From positions 1 through 64,000 of the forward strand of contig JAUVXW010000005.1 of NCBI GenBank assembly GCA_030603385.1: a stretch of DNA of 64,000 nucleotides. Reading direction: 5' to 3'. This document shows, piece by piece, positions 17,490-26,509 of the stretch. Every line of letters starts with the position of its first letter. Within the stretch, counting starts at the first letter, position 1. Source of the DNA: Promethearchaeota archaeon. GTDB taxonomy: Archaea; Asgardarchaeota; Lokiarchaeia; Sigyniarchaeales; SOKP01. Below the pieces are notes generated by a model. The model did not search any database. It saw only the letters and a list, made by a program, of their open reading frames with translations, and had not been told where the DNA came from. Both the position numbers and the translations under genes were made by a program.

Positions 17490-18257
17490 TTAATGAAGAA
17501 CAACTCCACCACATACACTTATAATTTGACCAGTCATGTAGTTTGAATCGTTTGAAACCAAGAAAGAAATTATTCCCGCAACATCTTCAGCTGTTCCCAC
17601 TCTTCTTAAGAGAGGCTTCATATTTATCGCATTCCAAAAATTTCGAATTAAATTTGGATCATTGTTATATATTGGTGTGATATGATACCCAGGACAAATT
17701 GCGTTCGCTGTTATTACAGGCGCTAATTCTTTGGCCAAAATTTTTGTTAAAGCTATGAGTGCCGCTTTACTACAGCTATATATTCCGATACCCGGCATTG
17801 GCTCTAATCCGGCAATGGAAGACACATTAACAATTTTTCCTCTAAGAGGTTTTAAATTTCTCTGGTTTTTCATAACTTTCGCGGCGTATTTCGACACTAA
17901 TCAAGCTCCTTTAAAATTTATATCCATTATTTTTTGCATATCTTCTTCAGAAATATCAAGAATCGAGGAACTTATTCCACTAATTCCCGCGTTATTGATA
18001 ACTCCATGAAGCTCCTTCTTTTCAGTAACAATTTCTGAAATCATAGATGAAACAAAATTAGAATCAGATACATCTCCTGCTTTTATTAAAACATCAATTT
18101 GAAATTTTTTTAACATTTTTTCAGTTTCGGCCAATTTACTTTCAGTTCTACCGTTTAAAATTATGTTATATCCTTCTTCTGCTAATCGTATTGCCATTGC
18201 TCTGCCGAGACCAGAACCTGAACCTGTAATCAAAATATTTTTAAAATTCACTTTCAT
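17490..18257 (-). pseudogene. SDR (FabG-like) oxidoreductase interrupted by one in-frame TGA (17901-17903)
   Basis: TGSGSGLG and NNAG in the 5' part; NVSS, YSCSK, NAICPG and YMTGQ in the 3' part; both parts in one frame: NFKGA*LVSKY. Confidence 0.85.
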
Positions 18258-18428: not shown

Positions 18429-18890
18429 CTAAACTTTATGTCTTAGATATATTGCCTGTAATCTAAAGGTTTGATAAATATGACCAATTGTGTGATGTAT
18501 GATGAATCCAAACCAATCTTCGTAAGTCATTTCTCTCCCAAAAGGGGATTTAAATGTATTTTTAAGATCTTCTTCCCTATATTTAGTTCTTTCCTCCACA
18601 TAGGCTTCAATTGCTATGTTAAACAAATCTAATAATTGTTCATGCAAAGGAGCGGTAGATTCAGGATCTAATTTTATTGCTATGTCTTTATTGTTTGCAT
18701 CAGGATTGGTCATTTTCTTCATTGCCCAATTTAATAGGGTGATAGAATGTATAAATACATTGAGAGCAGTCTCCTCCCCTTCAAATAACGGATTTTTCAT
18801 AGATTCCTCAAAATGATTATCCTTTCGCTTTTCAAACAAAGTTTTAGCATAATCATATACAAACTTCAAAGATTTGATACTTTCTGGCAT
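18429..18890 (-). CDS. DinB/YfiT superfamily protein
   Basis: Four-helix pattern with His triad: FIH...HHTIGHIYQ. Confidence 0.75.
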   Translation of the reverse strand: MPESIKSLKFVYDYAKTLFEKRKDNHFEESMKNPLFEGEETALNVFIHSITLLNWAMKKMTNPDANNKDIAIKLDPESTAPLHEQLLDLFNIAIEAYVEERTKYREEDLKNTFKSPFGREMTYEDWFGFIIHHTIGHIYQTFRLQAIYLRHKV

Positions 18891-19034: not shown

Positions 19035-19547
19035 TTAGATTCGTTGATTACTAACCCAGTTCTCCAATTTCACGCCTTTTCTATGGAGTCTTAAATTAAG
19101 AGCTCCTACGTGGAGCATTAAGTGACGAAGATTATAAATTAATGAACTTAAAACGCTATTTCCGTGCCATTCAAAAACAGAACGTTGTATTAATTCATCT
19201 GAAGTTAGATCTTCAAACCGATTTTTAGCTTTTTCTTTAATATCTGATAGGTAATCTAGTAATTGGTCACATGTTAATGTTATTTCTGGTGTTTTATTTA
19301 AATCTTCAAAATGCGATGATGCTTCGCCAAATTTCGATTTGAAACTTTCACGGGTTTTTTTTGAATCCGAAAGATACCAATCCAAAAACCACATCACGTG
19401 ATAAGCTACATGCCAAAATGGGGATCCACTGGTTCTATCATCCCATACTTCTTTTGGGCAACTTTTCAAATTTTGCTCCAACATCGTGATTGCAGCGCCG
19501 TATTGCTCGTGAATAGCATCCGATAATATTTTAAATGTTCTTTTCAT
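19035..19547 (-). CDS. DinB/YfiT superfamily protein
   Basis: FWHVAYH...YNLRHLMLHVGAL metal-binding His motifs. Confidence 0.85.
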   Translation of the reverse strand: MKRTFKILSDAIHEQYGAAITMLEQNLKSCPKEVWDDRTSGSPFWHVAYHVMWFLDWYLSDSKKTRESFKSKFGEASSHFEDLNKTPEITLTCDQLLDYLSDIKEKAKNRFEDLTSDELIQRSVFEWHGNSVLSSLIYNLRHLMLHVGALNLRLHRKGVKLENWVSNQRI

Positions 19548-19748
19548 AATTCACTCAACTAAAAACAATTTTTTATCATTTCTAAGGTCATATTATAATT
19601 TTTAATATTTCTTCTCTTTTAATATTTTTAAATTATCCGATATATTCTAATAGAATCTTTAAATAGAAAAGTTTTTTAAGATTCTAATGAGATTATTTAC
19701 AAGAATAAAGCCCTTAACTTTAAGATTAATAGGAAATAGGACAATACA

Positions 19749-20741
19749 ATGGATAAATTCGACCTAATTAAAAAAGCTTTAAAATCAGAACCCACCGAGA
19801 AAGTTCCCTATGCAATTTGGAAACATTTCCCCGAGTTCGATAAAGGTCCTGAAGGACTTTTAAAGGCGCAGATGGATTTTCAAAATAAATTCGATTCCGA
19901 TATTATGAAAATCTCAATCTCAGGTCGTGCTTTTGCTTCTGATTTTGGAGCGGAATTGGGAGGTTATGATCCAGATTCAGGATCTAGAATTTGTATGAAA
20001 TATCCAATCGAAAGTTTGGAGGATTGGGAGAATGTTAAAAAGGTTGATGTAACAAGGGGTGAATTCGGAAATCAGATTAAAGCAATGAAATTAATTCATC
20101 GGGAAGTTGACGGAAAAGTACCAACCATGATGACTGTTTTTTCTCCTTTTATGGTAGCGTCCCAAATCGATCCGAATGTAATTTCACACTACAGAAAGGA
20201 TCCTCAACTAATTGGGGAACAATTTAAAATAATAATTTCAGCAATGACAGATTTTACAAAAGCTTCACTAGATGCGGGAGCTGATGGCATATTTTTAGCC
20301 ACCCAACATTTTAACAATAAATTAACTGATGAGGAGCGATTAGAACTAGAATTTACACCAATGAAGTCCCTCATTAAAAAAACGTTAAAAAAGTATAATT
20401 TTCTGGTCCTTCATCTCCATGGTGACAATCCTGATTACGAATTGGCAACAAAACTGCCTATAAACGCCATTAACTGGCATGATCAACAAACGGCACCAAA
20501 CCTTTCTGAGGTGAGAAAAATTTTCAAGGGAGGACTTCTCGGAGGATTAAATGCAGAATCATGGAAAGATATATCCAATCCCGAAGATGTTTCATCATTG
20601 ATCTCTTCAGTTTACAAAAACTTTAAAGGTTCGGGATTAATAATCGCTCCCGGTTGTGTTATTCCTCAGTTTGTAAGTGATTCCATAATAGAAACCGCAG
20701 TAAAAACAATTAAAAATCTCAAAAAAATAATTAATGCTTGA
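19749..20741 (+). CDS. Uroporphyrinogen decarboxylase / MtaA-like (URO-D) family protein
   Basis: WKHFP, TVFSPF, AGADGIFLATQ, LHLHG, GLIIAPGC. Confidence 0.85.
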   Translation: MDKFDLIKKALKSEPTEKVPYAIWKHFPEFDKGPEGLLKAQMDFQNKFDSDIMKISISGRAFASDFGAELGGYDPDSGSRICMKYPIESLEDWENVKKVDVTRGEFGNQIKAMKLIHREVDGKVPTMMTVFSPFMVASQIDPNVISHYRKDPQLIGEQFKIIISAMTDFTKASLDAGADGIFLATQHFNNKLTDEERLELEFTPMKSLIKKTLKKYNFLVLHLHGDNPDYELATKLPINAINWHDQQTAPNLSEVRKIFKGGLLGGLNAESWKDISNPEDVSSLISSVYKNFKGSGLIIAPGCVIPQFVSDSIIETAVKTIKNLKKIINA

Positions 20742-20889
20742 GAAATTCGATGATTGGAATAAAAAATTCTTTTCAAAAAATAATTAGGCTAAGAATCATA
20801 TAATCAATTATTAAAATAACAGAAGATTTTTGAAAATTAAGCTGTTGCTTAGATGTATCAAAGAATAGTATTTTTAGTGTGAATTACGA

Positions 20890-21873
20890 ATGCAAGAATA
20901 TATTTCAGACTACTTTAATGATGACGTAGCTTTCTCTTCTAAGTATAATGGTCCGAAGTTTGATGCTCATGTTCATTTAGGGAGTATAGACGGTATTCAT
21001 AATTTAATTAAGTTCAGAGAAGAGTTTAATATCAAGAAATCAGTTGGTATCATCTGGGGGAATGATTATGATAAATTAGAAACAAATTTCCCTGATAAGT
21101 TTGTGTTGGCTAAATATTTTAGAAGTAGGCAGCTATTTAAAGCAAAGCCAAACCTTAAATTAACGTTAGATTTAATTGAAAAGATTTATCAACAAGGATT
21201 TCCAGTTGTTAAATTTTGGTTTGGCCCGAGAGTGAGAGATTTTGTAAGAGAACAATTCAAAATAGATCCACCAAAAATTAGATTATCTGATCCTTTTTTT
21301 AAGTCAATATTCGCCAAGATAGAAGAATTAGGGCTTATTTTATTAATTCACGTTAGTGATCCAGATCTTTGGTACGAGAAAGTTTATCAACCAGTTAGTC
21401 GATATGGTACCAAGAGAGAACATATAGATGATTTTGAGGAGATTTTATCAAGTTTTCCTAACTTAAAGGTACAACAAGCACATTTTGGGAGTCAACCAGA
21501 AGATCTTGAAAACCTCGCAAGGTGGATTGAATCATATCCAAATTACTACATTGATATATCTTCAGCAAGATGGATGGCACGAGAACTTGGGAGGTATCCA
21601 AAAAAAGCCAGAGAGTTTTTTATTAAATATTCAGATAGAATTCTTTTTGGGACAGATCTTGTGCAAGACCGAAATAAACCGATTTCAGATTATTATCGGA
21701 CTCGTTATTTTACCTTCCTAGCAATTTTAGAAACCTCATGTCGAGATGTACCATTACCTTTTCCAGATCCAGAAAATGATAATAATACAAAGATAAATGG
21801 CTTGGATCTTCCTCTTGATGTCTTAAAGAAGATTTATTGGGAAAATGCAATTAAGTTCTTCAAACTAAAATGA
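20890..21873 (+). CDS. Amidohydrolase family (Amidohydro_2) metallohydrolase
   Basis: DAHVH, IHVSDP, AHFG, YIDISS, RILFGTD, IYWENA. Confidence 0.88.
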   Translation: MQEYISDYFNDDVAFSSKYNGPKFDAHVHLGSIDGIHNLIKFREEFNIKKSVGIIWGNDYDKLETNFPDKFVLAKYFRSRQLFKAKPNLKLTLDLIEKIYQQGFPVVKFWFGPRVRDFVREQFKIDPPKIRLSDPFFKSIFAKIEELGLILLIHVSDPDLWYEKVYQPVSRYGTKREHIDDFEEILSSFPNLKVQQAHFGSQPEDLENLARWIESYPNYYIDISSARWMARELGRYPKKAREFFIKYSDRILFGTDLVQDRNKPISDYYRTRYFTFLAILETSCRDVPLPFPDPENDNNTKINGLDLPLDVLKKIYWENAIKFFKLK

Positions 21874-21881
21874 CCTACACA

Positions 21882-23591
21882 TTACAGAAAGATTTCTATT
21901 CCAGGAGGGAGCCACGGTTTGTAAATTCGAAAGTAATCATTAAAGAAATTAGATAACCCGTTTTTTAAACATAAATCCAACCAATGAAATACTGCCTCTT
22001 GTCCGTGTTTTTCCTTAGAGATTTTTCCGAACATATTACTTAAATAACTTGAAATGATATTTTTATCCTCTGAAGCTATATCGGTTGATTGGTTTTCTAA
22101 TAAGATATTTTCGATATGCATCATATATGGTTGAAAATTATTTAAAATTTCTATTATTTTTGCCCTTTCCATAACAGACACCTCGGATTTATTGATTAAA
22201 CGATTAAACTTCCCAAGATTTTTCATCAGGCCTTTTATATTTTCCAAAAATTGTGGTATATTTAATTTGACTAAATCTTGCTCAAGCTTCCTCGTGATAA
22301 ATGTATTCATTGTTATTTTATTATAAAAATAAATAACAGGTAAAGAAATATCTTTATCAAAATGTCTAATCAGAGGGATTCCCATCGTATAATATCTAGT
22401 TTCACCTGTACCTGCAATATGTATTGCGGGTTGGATGGTTTTTGAGATTAAATATTGACGGGATTCAACTCTGGGAGTGAAAAAAGAAGCATACTCAGAA
22501 AGATCAGGCTTATCCTTTTCGAGACTAAAATCTATTAAATCCCCGCAATGATCACATTTACATTTAACATGGATCATGGATGTATAATCTTGACAGGATA
22601 ATTCTAGTCTCTTACAGTTACACTGTTCATTAGTGCATTCAAAAAAAAAAGGGACAAAGTCATCTCTAATCTCTCTTAAGGGAGGTTGAATATGATGATC
22701 TATAAATTGATTTCTTAAATCTAAATATATATCAACATACTTACTTTGATTCTCTAATAATGTCTCATAAAATGGTGTTAATAGCTTTTTATATGCCAAA
22801 TCTGAAGCAGAAATAAAAAGATAGCCTTGATCAAAGATAATATTGGAAATTGTCCCAATTATGTTGATAAACCAGTCTGTATAGTTTTCTGCATTATTAT
22901 GTGCGATTTTGATTAACCGAAGCGCTTCCTCTAACCGTTCTTCTAATAGCTTTTTATGCCAATTATCCTCTAAGCAGGAATTAATAGAATTAATGTATTT
23001 TTTTCTAATTTCTTGAAACTGTTCCAAGAGATAAGACAGAGATGGTAGCGGAAGATTTCTAATTCTCATATCAAGAAACTCCTTTTCTATTTCAGGTTTT
23101 ATTGAAATCGAAAATCCATTAGGTGAATCACTTTGCGAAAATTTGGTTTTTATTAATTCAGAATGGACCTTATCATAATCAGCAACATAAAAAATTGGAA
23201 TTATATTATTATCAAGATTCGCAAAAGCTGCCCCGCATGCCATTTTGTTAAAAAGAAACCTTTCTCCACCTAAAAATTTAGGTTGATGTGAAACTTCTAA
23301 ACTCATACTATTATTATCAGTAAGGAAATTTTCTAAATGTCTCTTAGCTTTGTCAGTCAGTAGATTATATTTGCGATTTGTGTTTTCGAATATTTTTCCC
23401 AATGCAAATTTTATTTCATTCCTATTTGTATCTTTTTCCCTTTCTCTATTTACTTTTTTAGCAAGAAAAATGGCATCGCTCATTGATTGAGGTATAAGAT
23501 CTTTCATACCTTCAGAAATCCAAGATTCCTGTCCTTCCAGAGCATATAACAGGTAATAGGTTAATGGATCTTCAAATCTATCAGCTGACAT
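21882..23591 (-). CDS. BshC-like ligase (bacillithiol cysteine-adding enzyme family) with Cys-rich insert
   Basis: VSHQPKFLGG (cf. GQQ-x-LxxGP), PIFYVADYD (cf. PVFWxAxED), HIAGTGETRYY (cf. YxGGPGExxY); lies directly downstream of a BshB-like gene. Confidence 0.7.
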   Translation of the reverse strand: MSADRFEDPLTYYLLYALEGQESWISEGMKDLIPQSMSDAIFLAKKVNREREKDTNRNEIKFALGKIFENTNRKYNLLTDKAKRHLENFLTDNNSMSLEVSHQPKFLGGERFLFNKMACGAAFANLDNNIIPIFYVADYDKVHSELIKTKFSQSDSPNGFSISIKPEIEKEFLDMRIRNLPLPSLSYLLEQFQEIRKKYINSINSCLEDNWHKKLLEERLEEALRLIKIAHNNAENYTDWFINIIGTISNIIFDQGYLFISASDLAYKKLLTPFYETLLENQSKYVDIYLDLRNQFIDHHIQPPLREIRDDFVPFFFECTNEQCNCKRLELSCQDYTSMIHVKCKCDHCGDLIDFSLEKDKPDLSEYASFFTPRVESRQYLISKTIQPAIHIAGTGETRYYTMGIPLIRHFDKDISLPVIYFYNKITMNTFITRKLEQDLVKLNIPQFLENIKGLMKNLGKFNRLINKSEVSVMERAKIIEILNNFQPYMMHIENILLENQSTDIASEDKNIISSYLSNMFGKISKEKHGQEAVFHWLDLCLKNGLSNFFNDYFRIYKPWLPPGIEIFL

Positions 23592-23602
23592 CTCAATTTT
23601 AC

Positions 23603-24298
23603 CTAAAATTTTAAATTTTCAAAATCCACGATTAAATATTCAGAATTAATGAACCCTTCAGCGTACTTTACTCCAATTTGGTATCCCAAATATCCTGCTC
23701 GTTCTCTTATATAATCAAATATTCTTAAATACTTCTTATTATCAACAAACTGTGTTTTATAGGCTTTAAGAGCATTTATTTTTTCTTCGATAGAATCAGA
23801 AATATCGATTAAAAAGTCCAACTTTCGATTCTTATCTTTCAAATGTGAATGATCAAAATAAAAGACATATTTTGGGGAATATTCTGAATACTTTGATTCG
23901 GTTTTTGTTAATTTTGACTGAAATTTAGCAGCGTTTACAATCTGATGACAAGCAATGTGATCTGGGTGCCAATCATTAGAGGGATGAGTAATAAGGATAT
24001 TTGGTTTATATTTTCTAATCACTTCAGAAACCTTTTTCCTGTTCTCAATTGTATTTTCAATATATCTATTTGTCATGTCTAGAGTAATTCTTATATCTAG
24101 ATGTAAAATTTCAGAAGCAGCTTTAGCCTCAGCCATTCTTTTTTCAACAGTACCGAATGGGGTGGGTTCTCCATTTGATAAATCTAAAACCCCTATTTTT
24201 TTACCTCTTTTCTTATAATGGGCAATTGTTCCTCCACATCCGATTTCTGCATCATCTGGATGGGCTCCAATTACTAAAATATCTAACTCAAGGTCCAT
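23603..24298 (-). CDS. bshB1: BshB1-like PIG-L/LmbE family N-acetylglucosaminyl deacetylase
   Basis: AHPDDAEIGCGG, DLSNGE, HPDH, IDIS...KINALKAYKTQF, GVKYAEGF. Confidence 0.85.
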   Translation of the reverse strand: MDLELDILVIGAHPDDAEIGCGGTIAHYKKRGKKIGVLDLSNGEPTPFGTVEKRMAEAKAASEILHLDIRITLDMTNRYIENTIENRKKVSEVIRKYKPNILITHPSNDWHPDHIACHQIVNAAKFQSKLTKTESKYSEYSPKYVFYFDHSHLKDKNRKLDFLIDISDSIEEKINALKAYKTQFVDNKKYLRIFDYIRERAGYLGYQIGVKYAEGFINSEYLIVDFENLKF

Positions 24299-24307
24299 TT
24301 TAATCTA

Positions 24308-25210
24308 CTAAGTTTCTAGTTCTCTAATTTTTGTAAATATTGCTTCTTGTATTTTTTTATAATTATATTTATTAATATCATCCACACTATTGAAATAATT
24401 TGAAAAAATTAACTTAAAAACATTAATATTTGTTTTTAAAGGAGTATTCAAGAGTGATTCAATTAATTGAATATATTTTTCAATTCTTTCTTCTCCTTTT
24501 TTAAACAAGAAGCTATCTTTTGCATTTTTTAAAATTGCATCTCTATCTTTATATATTACTGGAACTTCTTTTTCAACAATGGTATATCCGTTTTTCATTG
24601 CTTTAATCCAGATTTCGATGGGTATTTCATATCCGTTTATCTCCAATTCTAAATCATTAATTGCATTACATTCATATGCCTTTAATCCGCAAAATGCATC
24701 TGTAATAGAAAGTCCGATAGTATTGAGAATTCCTGTGATGATCGTATTAACAAGAAATCTATCTTTCCATGGTTTCTGCCAGAATAGTTCTGAATTTTTA
24801 TATCTTGAACCAGAAATAATTTGTTCTGATGGTTTTTCAAGGATTAGTTCAATAAACTTGTAAAAACATTTAGGTTCATGTTGACCATCCATATCAAACG
24901 ATATTATCCAGGAAAAATTCTTTTTTTTAGCGTATTTAAAACCGTTTATAAGTGTATAGCCATAACCTTTATTTTCTTTAAAGTTAATAATAGTAAAAAG
25001 GGAATTTTGATTGTTTTTATCCAAAATTTGCATGGTTCTATCAGTAGAACCATCATTGATGATAAGGATCTCCAAATTAAATTCGCTTCTTTTCTGCAAA
25101 TTTTGTTTTACGTCACGGAGATGTTCTAATATATGCTCAATGTTTTCTTCTTCATTAAAACACGGGATAAGTAAGAGAATGTCAATTATTTCTTTAGAAA
25201 TGTCGAACAA
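24308..25210 (-). CDS. Glycosyltransferase family 2 (DPM1-like)
   Basis: IPCFNEE, INDGSTD, NKGYG, DMDGQH, SGSRY, TDAFCGLKAY. Confidence 0.9.
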   Translation of the reverse strand: MFDISKEIIDILLLIPCFNEEENIEHILEHLRDVKQNLQKRSEFNLEILIINDGSTDRTMQILDKNNQNSLFTIINFKENKGYGYTLINGFKYAKKKNFSWIISFDMDGQHEPKCFYKFIELILEKPSEQIISGSRYKNSELFWQKPWKDRFLVNTIITGILNTIGLSITDAFCGLKAYECNAINDLELEINGYEIPIEIWIKAMKNGYTIVEKEVPVIYKDRDAILKNAKDSFLFKKGEERIEKYIQLIESLLNTPLKTNINVFKLIFSNYFNSVDDINKYNYKKIQEAIFTKIRELET

Positions 25211-25318
25211 CCCATCATATTTTATGAATATTCATTGAAACAATAATTCTTAACTTTTAGAATTGTTGATTATGATTTATAAAAAATTGATAATTTAAGG
25301 TATTTACTTCTCAAAAGA

Positions 25319-26509
25319 TTATATTAATAAAAAGAAGAGCCAATAAAAACCAATTAATATTATAAAAGATATAAAAATCGGTTTTCCTAAGATCTTTACA
25401 ACTTTTTTGAAATCAGTCTCAAAATAATCTGTACTATAGGCAACACATGGATGGATTGGGGTGATGAGATATCCTAAAAAAATTGAAACGTAGATAAAAA
25501 TGAAATCTAAGAGCGGCATGGTAAAGACAGCATTTTGCTCGAGATAAATGCGAATTAAGATTAAAATTGGTAATTGAATCCTTCCTGTTGCAAAGCCTAG
25601 GAAGAAACCAATTAATATTAAAAGAAAGACTGATAAATTTAAGCTAGCTATTTCCTCAGGAGCACCAGAAAGAATAAATACTTCTAAAAATATAAACATG
25701 GAAAATATTATCAATGGGAAACGCCAAATTTTCATTCTTTTCGATATACTTTTAATACGTGAGAACTTCATGCTTCCAAATCGTAAAGCTAACCCAATAC
25801 TAAAAACAAGGGCAACAAGAAGAAATATTTCGGGAACACGCAGATTAAAAATTGTTCTTCCAATAAAATCTATTATTGGGGCGATAATAATTGGAAGCAT
25901 GTTATGAAGTGCTCTCTTAAGATCTCTTTCCCCTTGTTCTGAAAAAGGAGAAACATCTTTAATCAACGTGAGATATCCCACTAACCACATTATTATCAAA
26001 CAAGGCAATAATCCAATTACTATTATATAAAGATTAATACCAGTAAGAATGCTTGCTAAAATCAATGAAGAAGATAAAGGATAAATCAGGATTAGCATAT
26101 GTCGATACCAAACATTGATTGATACTTTTTTACTTGAATCTTCTTCAGAATCAATCTGTTCTACAATAGGGGCTGACATCAAAGCTCCTCCTGGTACGGG
26201 TAATAAGCCAAATAAGGCAGGAATGGTCATGAGAGAAGCTTTTCGTGAAACTCGCATTTTTTGAATCATCTCCCTCATTAGTCCAGATTCCTCCATAATC
26301 CCTCCTAAGATAGATATAAGTGTAACAATAATCATCAATACGAGAATAGTTGGATTTGTTACCACATTGATCAATGATTGTAAGATGTCAGCACCTGCCA
26401 AAATGGCAAAACCTACAGCTCCTAAGGAAAGTGTAAGACTTAACTCATACTTAGAAAGAATCATGACTATGCATATAATGATGACAAAACTCAGCCACGC
26501 AGGTAACAT
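25319..26509 (-). CDS. DUF401 family membrane protein (ion-transporter-superfamily-like)
   Basis: PALFGLLPVPGGALMSAP, NVWYRH, GYLITPIHPC; about 11 TM helices. Confidence 0.85.
   Translation of the reverse strand: MLPAWLSFVIIICIVMILSKYELSLTLSLGAVGFAILAGADILQSLINVVTNPTILVLMIIVTLISILGGIMEESGLMREMIQKMRVSRKASLMTIPALFGLLPVPGGALMSAPIVEQIDSEEDSSKKVSINVWYRHMLILIYPLSSSLILASILTGINLYIIVIGLLPCLIIMWLVGYLTLIKDVSPFSEQGERDLKRALHNMLPIIIAPIIDFIGRTIFNLRVPEIFLLVALVFSIGLALRFGSMKFSRIKSISKRMKIWRFPLIIFSMFIFLEVFILSGAPEEIASLNLSVFLLILIGFFLGFATGRIQLPILILIRIYLEQNAVFTMPLLDFIFIYVSIFLGYLITPIHPCVAYSTDYFETDFKKVVKILGKPIFISFIILIGFYWLFFLLI

Follow-up and report, generated by a model that had tools for sequence, protein, structure and literature searches.

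A four-gene cassette of Lokiarchaeales with a GT2 glycosyltransferase in place of BshA and a predicted bacillithiol-like product

Introduction

Few thiols are known to serve cells as buffers, examples being glutathione, mycothiol, bacillithiol, ergothioneine and coenzyme A, and to our knowledge none has been measured in Asgard archaea. Bacillithiol is made in Bacillus, Staphylococcus, Deinococcus and others by BshA, BshB1 and BshC, following a logic of glycosylation, de-N-acetylation and aminoacylation. Mycothiol is made on a similar plan by MshA, MshA2, MshB, MshC and MshD: an LmbE-family enzyme removes the acetyl group from an N-acetylglucosamine (GlcNAc) glycoside, a class-I-synthetase-like ligase then adds cysteine, the phosphatase MshA2 carries out a further hydrolytic step, and the thiol is used by DinB-type S-transferases. 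Here we describe a gene cassette of the same logic in a 64,000-nucleotide stretch of DNA from a Promethearchaeota archaeon (assembly GCA_030603385.1, contig JAUVXW010000005.1, positions 1 to 64,000; hereafter the window), whose first enzyme belongs to glycosyltransferase family GT2. BshA and BshC homologues in Asgard archaea were noted in a review (Rawat & Maupin-Furlow 2020, PMC7278568), and a 2025 survey of RefSeq, available as a preprint, detected no archaeon in which the bacillithiol pathway is complete (10.1101/2025.07.06.663066). A full-text literature search found no paper describing the GT2-type cassette.

With the bacillithiol pathway the cassette shares a deacetylase that scores over the BshB1 cut-off and a third protein with the core motifs and, in its model, the fold of BshC. 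It departs from that pathway in its first enzyme, an inverting GT2 enzyme of the GT-A fold where bacillithiol synthesis has the GT4 enzyme BshA (TIGR03999), in a Trp or Phe at the deacetylase position held by Arg109, in an added Amidohydro_2 protein, and in the lack of YpdA, Brx and YtxJ partners; unlike bacterial BshC, its BshC-like protein is far from reaching the cut-off of the family and contains an insert rich in Cys. Mycothiol synthesis differs from it further, since MshA is a GT4 enzyme, MshC is a paralogue of cysteinyl-tRNA synthetase rather than a BshC-like protein, and the cassette deacetylase reaches 48.7 bits on the MshB model against a cut-off of 224. Among GT2 enzymes, those acting on polyprenyl phosphates (the Pyrococcus furiosus dolichyl-phosphate-mannose synthase PfDPMS, 5MLZ; sll0501, a GtrB-type enzyme; ArnC; PpgS) share with the cassette enzyme the GT-A domain, the DxD-x-Q-H motif and an Arg equivalent to R117, while the cassette enzyme has no transmembrane segment or membrane anchor, does not keep R131, S135 and K178 in the alignment, and stands in an operon with soluble enzymes. 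Also close are the BshA-BshC pairs of other Asgard families, from the same phylum, whose archaeal-type BshC-like proteins share the zinc-ribbon cysteines; the Loki-order clade has GT2 and Amidohydro_2 genes and no BshA, and the BshC-like proteins of the two kinds fall in separate clades at 24-31% identity. We argue below that the product of the cassette is probably an undescribed cysteine-aminosugar compound.

Results

Arrangement and conservation of the cassette

The original prediction for this stretch, made from the letters alone, had described three co-directional genes separated by 9 and 11 bp and encoding a GT2 enzyme, a BshB1-type deacetylase and a BshC-like protein. The open reading frame (ORF) coordinates and family assignments confirm this observation as written. 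Names carried by close homologues likewise put the organism, a metagenome-assembled genome, in Promethearchaeota (Lokiarchaeia). A fourth gene belongs to the set, so that the trio is in fact a four-gene cassette:

24308-25210, minus strand: GT2 gene, first of the operon (300 aa, TTG start)
23603-24298, minus strand: BshB1-type deacetylase gene (231 aa)
21882-23591, minus strand: gene of the BshC-fold protein (569 aa)
22545-22637, minus strand: Cys-rich, zinc-ribbon-like insert of the BshC-like protein (residues 319-349, with C319, C324, C346 and C349)
20890-21873, plus strand: gene of the Amidohydro_2 protein, with a metal-dependent hydrolase/decarboxylase fold (PF04909, 327 aa)

The gaps within the trio lie at 24299-24307 (9 bp, between the GT2 and deacetylase genes) and at 23592-23602 (11 bp, between the deacetylase and BshC-like genes). 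The Amidohydro_2 gene is inverted in the clade of the window, where it converges on the BshC-like gene across an 8-bp gap.

A motif scan with the GT2 alignment, run on 185,579 species with one genome apiece, gave 29 loci. All but one of them (28 loci) are from Promethearchaeota, the cultured Promethearchaeum syntrophicum MK-D1 and Lokiarchaeum ossiferum among them; the single GT2 match outside this phylum is a weak one in a Kaiserbacteria metagenome-assembled genome. The full set of GT2, BshB, BshC-like and Amidohydro_2 genes is present in 25 of the 28 loci, both cultured strains included, and the Amidohydro_2 gene adjoins the BshC-like gene in 25 of 28 as well (two of the 28 end right after the GT2 gene, and two of the 25 full loci break off within the BshC-like gene or directly behind it). 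In other Loki lineages the Amidohydro_2 gene is co-directional with the rest, and this arrangement of four genes extends to distant neighbourhoods such as that of Ca. Lokiarchaeum ossiferum (49% identity) and others at 35-40%; one locus is without the PIG-L gene. Recurrence of the arrangement in 25 of 28 related loci is far beyond chance, and conservation of the trio among relatives, as predicted, holds order-wide with Amidohydro_2 as the conserved fourth gene. The one remaining locus of the 28 (L054:7665-8717), on a 3.7-Mb scaffold of a Promethearchaeota metagenome-assembled genome, has a BshC-like ORF of only about 350 aa with no Amidohydro_2 gene behind it; the cassette may be decaying there.

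The 569-aa protein and the BshC fold

The 569-aa protein has no Pfam match of its own, though many of its homologues carry PF10079, and on the curated BshC model TIGR03998 it scores 31.2 bits against a cut-off of 265.8, which by this score leaves it outside the family. A search of the single sequence against PDB gave no match, and the link to BshC came from a family profile and a fold search. An exhaustive search of 1.84 billion representatives showed that the protein belongs to a small family of 87 proteins at E <= 0.001. Homologues in some NCBI records already bear the name "bacillithiol biosynthesis protein BshC". The profile of a 42-sequence alignment of this family (A1) matched Bacillus subtilis BshC (4WBD) with an E value of 4.2e-48 over nearly the full length (profile positions 53-546, chain residues 52-526). 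The AlphaFold (AF2) model built on A1 reached a mean predicted local distance difference test score (pLDDT) of 93.7 and a predicted template-modelling score (pTM) of 0.93, and when it was searched against PDB with Foldseek the top match was again 4WBD (E 3.6e-16, template-modelling scores 0.65/0.68), followed by the class I lysyl-tRNA synthetase (LysRS) 1IRX. As modelled, the 569-aa protein has the BshC fold, with a Rossmann core bearing connective-peptide (CP) motifs and a helical domain, and the BshC-like assignment of the original prediction is borne out by both the profile and the fold search.

Core residues are shared between the 569-aa protein and a true bacterial BshC (reference P0164, 576 bits on TIGR03998), namely Q103, which sits in an (H/Q)QP..GG stretch, K116, D138, D140, G394-x-G-E397 and Y400. 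Within the Cys-rich insert, C319, C346 and C349 are kept across all archaeal-type clades, with the exception of two BshA/f22-clade members that have Asp in place of C349, and C324 is kept in every GT2-linked member; the two bacterial-type rows of the alignment, including P0164, have no insert cysteines, and B. subtilis BshC is gapped there. Since the insert is present in all archaeal-type clades, it is not specific to the GT2-linked form. On these grounds the 569-aa protein is predicted to be a divergent BshC-fold ligase that adds an amino acid, presumably cysteine.

A BshB1-type deacetylase that has lost a substrate contact

The deacetylase matches PF02585 (LmbE/PIG-L), as the single PIG-L match in the genome, and scores 204.3 bits on the BshB1 model TIGR04001, over the cut-off of 182.5. 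When aligned with the BshB structures 2IXD and 6P2T, it keeps H13, D15, D16, R54, H111, D113 and H114, which correspond to H12, D14, D15, R53, H110, D112 and H113 of BC1534, i.e. the zinc ligands and catalytic residues. At the position of BC1534 Arg109 the window's deacetylase has W110, and among eight GT2-linked deacetylases this position is Trp in seven and Phe in one (MK-D1). Docking and mutagenesis of B. cereus BshB indicated that Arg53 and Arg109 contact the substrate GlcNAc-malate, with R53A inactive and R109K impaired (PMC4101496). Loss of Arg109 suggests an aglycone other than a dicarboxylate. The PIG-L genes near the BshA-BshC pairs (L021, L022 and L024) are of another subtype that lacks the GEPTP loop and so make an unclean comparison for residue 109.

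The GT2 glycosyltransferase

The first enzyme matches PF00535 (E 9.6e-25) and has a GT-A domain of the DPM1/PpgS/ArnC type. Its best NCBIfam matches, PpgS (77.6 bits), AglJ and ArnC, are all far below their cut-offs, and its best PDB sequence match is PfDPMS (5MLZ). The FDMDGQH stretch aligns with PfDPMS 89-DADLQH-94, so that D89, D91, Q93 and H94 are kept. Of the PfDPMS residues that contact the phosphate of dolichyl phosphate (PMC5526996), R117 is kept as R136, while the alignment sets D150, V154 and E195 opposite R131, S135 and K178, in a region where the hidden Markov model posterior is about 0.7-0.9 and a one-residue shift is possible. No transmembrane segment was found in the GT2 by hydropathy, the highest 19-residue Kyte-Doolittle mean being 0.99-1.55 across four orthologues; the maximum of the window's enzyme, 1.55, falls within the GT-A core and compares with 2.78 for a neighbouring DUF401 membrane protein. 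The same hydropathy scan found no transmembrane segment in any of the four cassette proteins.

GT4 enzymes retain the anomeric configuration of the donor sugar. GT2 enzymes invert it (PMC5526996), and the linkage made by the cassette GT2 must therefore differ from that of bacillithiol.

GT2 orthologues of other Loki lineages carry a Cys-rich C-terminal tail (e.g. C-x-C...CSPTCEI...CK) that the window's GT2 does not have. They are found at the following loci:

L007:5897-6985, GT2 orthologue with Cys-rich tail
L008:4960-6201, GT2 orthologue with Cys-rich tail
L019:8336-9358, GT2 orthologue with Cys-rich tail
L006:6339-7334, GT2 orthologue with Cys-rich tail
L010:4062-5012, GT2 orthologue with Cys-rich tail

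In the ESM Atlas, Planctomycetota clusters were nearest to both the GT2 and the Amidohydro_2 protein by language-model features, and the planctomycete-type gene pair and lateral exchange put forward in the original prediction are only a lead drawn from these neighbours.

The Amidohydro_2 protein

The fourth protein matches PF04909 with an E value of 2.6e-20 (73.8 bits, cut-off 26.4), and D25, H27, H29, H154, H178, H198 and D256, which supply the HxH, H, H and D metal ligands, are invariant in its orthologues. It had no NCBIfam match and no PDB sequence match, which leaves it without a specific subfamily, and its AF2 model (pLDDT 85) retrieved with Foldseek only generic TIM-barrel amidohydrolases (LigI, LigJ, aromatic-acid decarboxylases and dihydroorotase) at template-modelling scores of about 0.55. 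Candidate roles are the making or trimming of the acceptor, or that of an amidase like Mca or Bca, which was considered because the genome has no second PIG-L paralogue.

Metagenome relatives of this protein (25-44% identity, mostly on high-GC contigs) had no GT2, PIG-L/BshB or BshC neighbours; they stand near TauE, DUF362, FMN reductase and topoisomerase IB genes, which are uninformative on its role. The nearest cassette-free relatives (L072:1505-3517 and L073:944-2956, 41-42% identity) lie beside DUF362 and near a eukaryote-type topoisomerase IB, and probably come from other archaea.

GT2 stands where other families of the phylum have BshA

No BshA was found in the genome of the window (3.89 Mb, 94% complete): five GT4 proteins matched TIGR03999, the best with 131.1 bits against a cut-off of 273.7. 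This agrees with the expectation that no true BshA is encoded elsewhere. For comparison, the coordinates of BshA and BshC-like genes were compared by hand in 151 sampled genomes of the phylum. The BshC-like gene is present in 72 of them and BshA over the curated cut-off in 61, and in 56 of these 61 the two genes are no more than about 1 kb apart. Three more have the two genes within 7 kb, one has them on different contigs, and one is without a BshC-like match to the query used. The BshA-bearing genomes belong to families f5, f7, f12, f14, f18, f24 and f25, and their BshC-like proteins are 24-31% identical to the 569-aa protein. Among the Loki-order genomes (25 of the same family, f1, and two of the same order, f2) no BshA was found at E <= 1e-40, and both f2 genomes carry the GT2-type BshC-like gene. 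Given the 56 genomes with BshA close to the BshC-like gene, GT2 sits in the Loki order where BshA sits elsewhere, and the proposed replacement of BshA by GT2 is thus borne out.

The cassette is an accessory element: the BshC-like gene occurs in 13 of the 54 species genomes of the genus and in none of the 25 sampled genomes of the family, which cover several genera. In a quick maximum-likelihood tree, ten GT2-linked BshC-like proteins formed one clade (SH-aLRT 100), which enters an unresolved three-way split with a BshA/f22-type clade and a third clade and is not nested in the BshA/f22-type clade. Because of this split and the single bacterial outgroup, the tree does not give the direction of the glycosyltransferase swap.

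Family f22 shows a third state, in which the BshC-like gene stands beside an aminotransferase and an arginyl-tRNA synthetase without an adjacent glycosyltransferase, while GT2 and BshB1-like genes are located elsewhere in these genomes. This may be a third use of the BshC-like ligase family, perhaps in lipid aminoacylation. The f22 loci L015:1851-13104 and L016:3464-8326 hold genes for a class I/II aminotransferase, the arginyl-tRNA synthetase, a geranylgeranyl-reductase-like protein and a protein with an LPG_synthase_TM (MprF-type) domain.

Proposed pathway and alternatives

We propose that the cassette encodes a soluble four-enzyme small-molecule pathway of Lokiarchaeales leading to a bacillithiol-like compound other than bacillithiol. 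The inverting GT2 would attach an N-acetylhexosamine (GlcNAc, with UDP-GlcNAc as donor, is the likeliest) through a beta linkage to an acceptor X that is probably not L-malate; the BshB1-type zinc deacetylase would free the 2-amino group; and the BshC-fold ligase would couple an amino acid, in all likelihood cysteine, to this amine to give Cys-hexosamine-beta-X. In the least certain step, the Amidohydro_2 protein would make or trim X or recycle conjugates as an amidase. In the genus of the window, two DinB-type proteins encoded beside the cassette would then use the thiol as S-transferases:

19035-19547, minus strand: DinB_2 superfamily protein, candidate thiol S-transferase (170 aa; PF12867, 31.9 bits, cut-off 24.8)
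18429-18890, minus strand: second DinB_2 superfamily protein (153 aa; PF12867, 25.2 bits, cut-off 24.8)

The DinB superfamily includes bacillithiol and mycothiol S-transferases, and both sequences have candidate His residues able to form a metal triad. Among the 54 genus genomes, 11 encode a strong orthologue of the 170-aa protein (11 of 13 cassette carriers versus none of 41 non-carriers), and in G152 it lies on another contig. The second DinB_2 gene accompanies the cassette in many loci, those of G152, G154 and G163 included. By analogy with the known S-transferases, this co-occurrence fits a thiol product.

With all steps inferred from genes, folds and context, we give an even chance to a soluble pathway that makes a beta-linked Cys-hexosamine-X thiol and not bacillithiol. 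The fuller statement, that Lokiarchaeales including both cultured strains make a new beta-linked cysteinyl-hexosamine thiol with a non-malate aglycone through GT2, BshB, the zinc-ribbon BshC and Amidohydro_2, and that DinB transferases use it, falls a little short of even. If it is true, the small set of redox-buffer thiols would gain a new member in the prokaryotic lineage closest to eukaryotes. One phylum holds two states, a canonical BshA-BshC pair in many lineages and a rewired cassette in the Loki order, where the first enzyme must give a different linkage and the deacetylase no longer has one of the contacts to the substrate that bears malate. The cultured P. syntrophicum MK-D1 and L. 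ossiferum both carry the cassette and so allow a direct search for its product.

Several points weigh against this proposal. The 569-aa protein scores low on TIGR03998 (31 against 266 bits), and the closest characterised relatives of the GT2 all use polyprenyl phosphates. The usual bacillithiol partners are missing from the genome, with no YpdA over its cut-off, no BrxA/B and no YtxJ, and the cassette is dispensable, 41 of the 54 genus species being without it. The DinB co-occurrence is not independent evidence, because most of the linkage is physical and the genomes are related to one another. Cysteine as the added amino acid is an assumption, since the ligase activity of BshC has never been reconstituted in vitro, that of the Bacillus enzyme included (PMC4360819); the zinc-ribbon BshC-like proteins may help with this old problem.

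The original prediction had offered, beside a new thiol, a lipid-linked product, and this alternative we consider distinctly unlikely. Under it, the GT2 would make dolichyl-phosphate-GlcNAc (or the N-acetylgalactosamine form), from which the deacetylase and the BshC-like protein would produce an aminoacyl-glucosamine-phosphate-dolichol donor for a surface glycan or lipid, by a logic that resembles ArnC/ArnD or PIG-A/PIG-L. Every named relative of the GT2 is a polyprenyl-phosphate glycosyltransferase (PpgS, AglJ and ArnC by family model; 5MLZ, sll0501 5EKE/5EKP and ArnC by structure), and the GT2 itself retains the DxD-Q-H motif along with the R117 equivalent. Against it stand the lack of a transmembrane helix in the four GT2 orthologues examined, although human DPM1 is without one as well and its absence alone does not exclude the family (PMC5526996), and the apparent change of R131, S135 and K178 to Asp, Val and Glu, of which the acidic Asp and Glu would repel a phosphate; GtrB likewise has no readily recognised counterparts of R131 and S135, so that their loss is not decisive (PMC5526996). 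The other three cassette enzymes are soluble, no conserved flippase, AglB/oligosaccharyltransferase or other glycan genes surround the cassette (L006, L008, L010 and the window), and the DinB co-occurrence better fits a soluble thiol. A polyprenyl-phosphate acceptor is thus weakened by the sequence of the GT2, and with it the lipid-linked part of the original prediction, while its BshC fold, conserved trio, missing BshA and GT2 replacement have stood, and a product other than bacillithiol appears plausible from the inverting GT2 and the lost Arg109.

A product that is not a thiol is rather unlikely in our view. The BshC-fold enzyme would add another amino or carboxylic acid to hexosamine-X, giving a compatible solute, cofactor precursor or secondary metabolite, with the DinB proteins as bystanders. 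The low BshC score, the unproven chemistry of BshC (PMC4360819), the closeness of the fold to class I LysRS, the f22 loci with aminotransferase and arginyl-tRNA synthetase and no glycosyltransferase, and the missing redox partners would all suit it. The sister archaeal BshC-like proteins with the same zinc ribbon, on the other hand, go together with genuine BshA, and this pairing links the family to chemistry of the bacillithiol type, and within the genus DinB_2 orthologues occur only alongside the cassette. Ordinary bacillithiol, for which the GT2 would be a non-orthologous BshA substitute acting on L-malate, agrees with the BshB1 score over the equivalog cut-off and with the NCBI records that name homologues as BshC. 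We regard it as very improbable, because an inverting GT2 acting on a UDP-alpha-sugar gives a beta link where the glucosamine-malate link of bacillithiol is alpha, because the substrate-contacting Arg109 is lost in every GT2-linked deacetylase examined (PMC4101496), and because the conserved extra hydrolase has no role in the known pathway.

The accessory island and its other genes

Around the cassette lies an island of about 8.3 kb (about 18.26-26.6 kb of the window), defined by comparison with the cassette-less relative G161, which has the same flanks (Hef and a large coiled-coil gene on one side, an intact SDR gene on the other) with one metallo-beta-lactamase-fold gene between them instead of the island. 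The island holds, in order, the two DinB_2 genes, a URO-D/MtaA-like gene, the Amidohydro_2, BshC-like, BshB and GT2 genes, and a DUF401 gene. Beyond the cassette and the DinB_2 genes these are:

19749-20741, plus strand: URO-D/MtaA-like protein, in the island of this genus-level clade only (330 aa; PF01208, E 4e-22)
25319-26509, minus strand: DUF401/TIGR00529 membrane protein, upstream of GT2 and inside the island (PF04165, E 1e-35)

The URO-D/MtaA-like protein has weak NCBIfam matches to methylcobamide:CoM methyltransferases, and its gene adjoins Amidohydro_2 in 13 close loci among L037-L053. Methylcobamide:CoM methyltransferases have an H-x-C...C zinc motif, in whose presumed place this protein reads LHLHGD...PGC. 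It may be a thiol-alkylating enzyme. The DUF401 gene adjoins the cassette in L038 and L049 and lies on a separate contig from it in G152 and G154, which makes a link of this protein to the pathway doubtful.

Base composition of the island showed no anomaly. A promoter and terminator scan with bacterial models, which are not applicable to archaea, gave chance-level counts only. G152, G154 and G163 share with the window a block of DNA (positions 19646-25292 of the window) at 85-86% identity. In G152 the block (DinB, URO-D-like, Amidohydro_2, BshC-like, BshB and GT2) and the flanks of the window type are on separate contigs (C1:95429-101028 versus C6:67486-81097; L026, L012), with the second DinB gene on a third contig, an arrangement that hints at relocation of the block or exchange within the genus.

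At the syntenic site of cassette-less genus members (L066:7649-8644 of G161, L067 and L068), a single gene of 331-337 aa adjoins Hef; the metallo-beta-lactamase-fold assignment applies to the gene of G161, between Hef and SDR. In the window, the SDR (FabG-like) gene (17490-18257, minus strand) is split into ORFs of 118 and 135 aa by a single in-frame TGA at 17901-17903, where the intact 256-aa orthologue of G161 has Trp (FKGAWLVSK). This could be a TGG>TGA mutation that makes the gene a pseudogene or a sequencing error, recoding being less likely.

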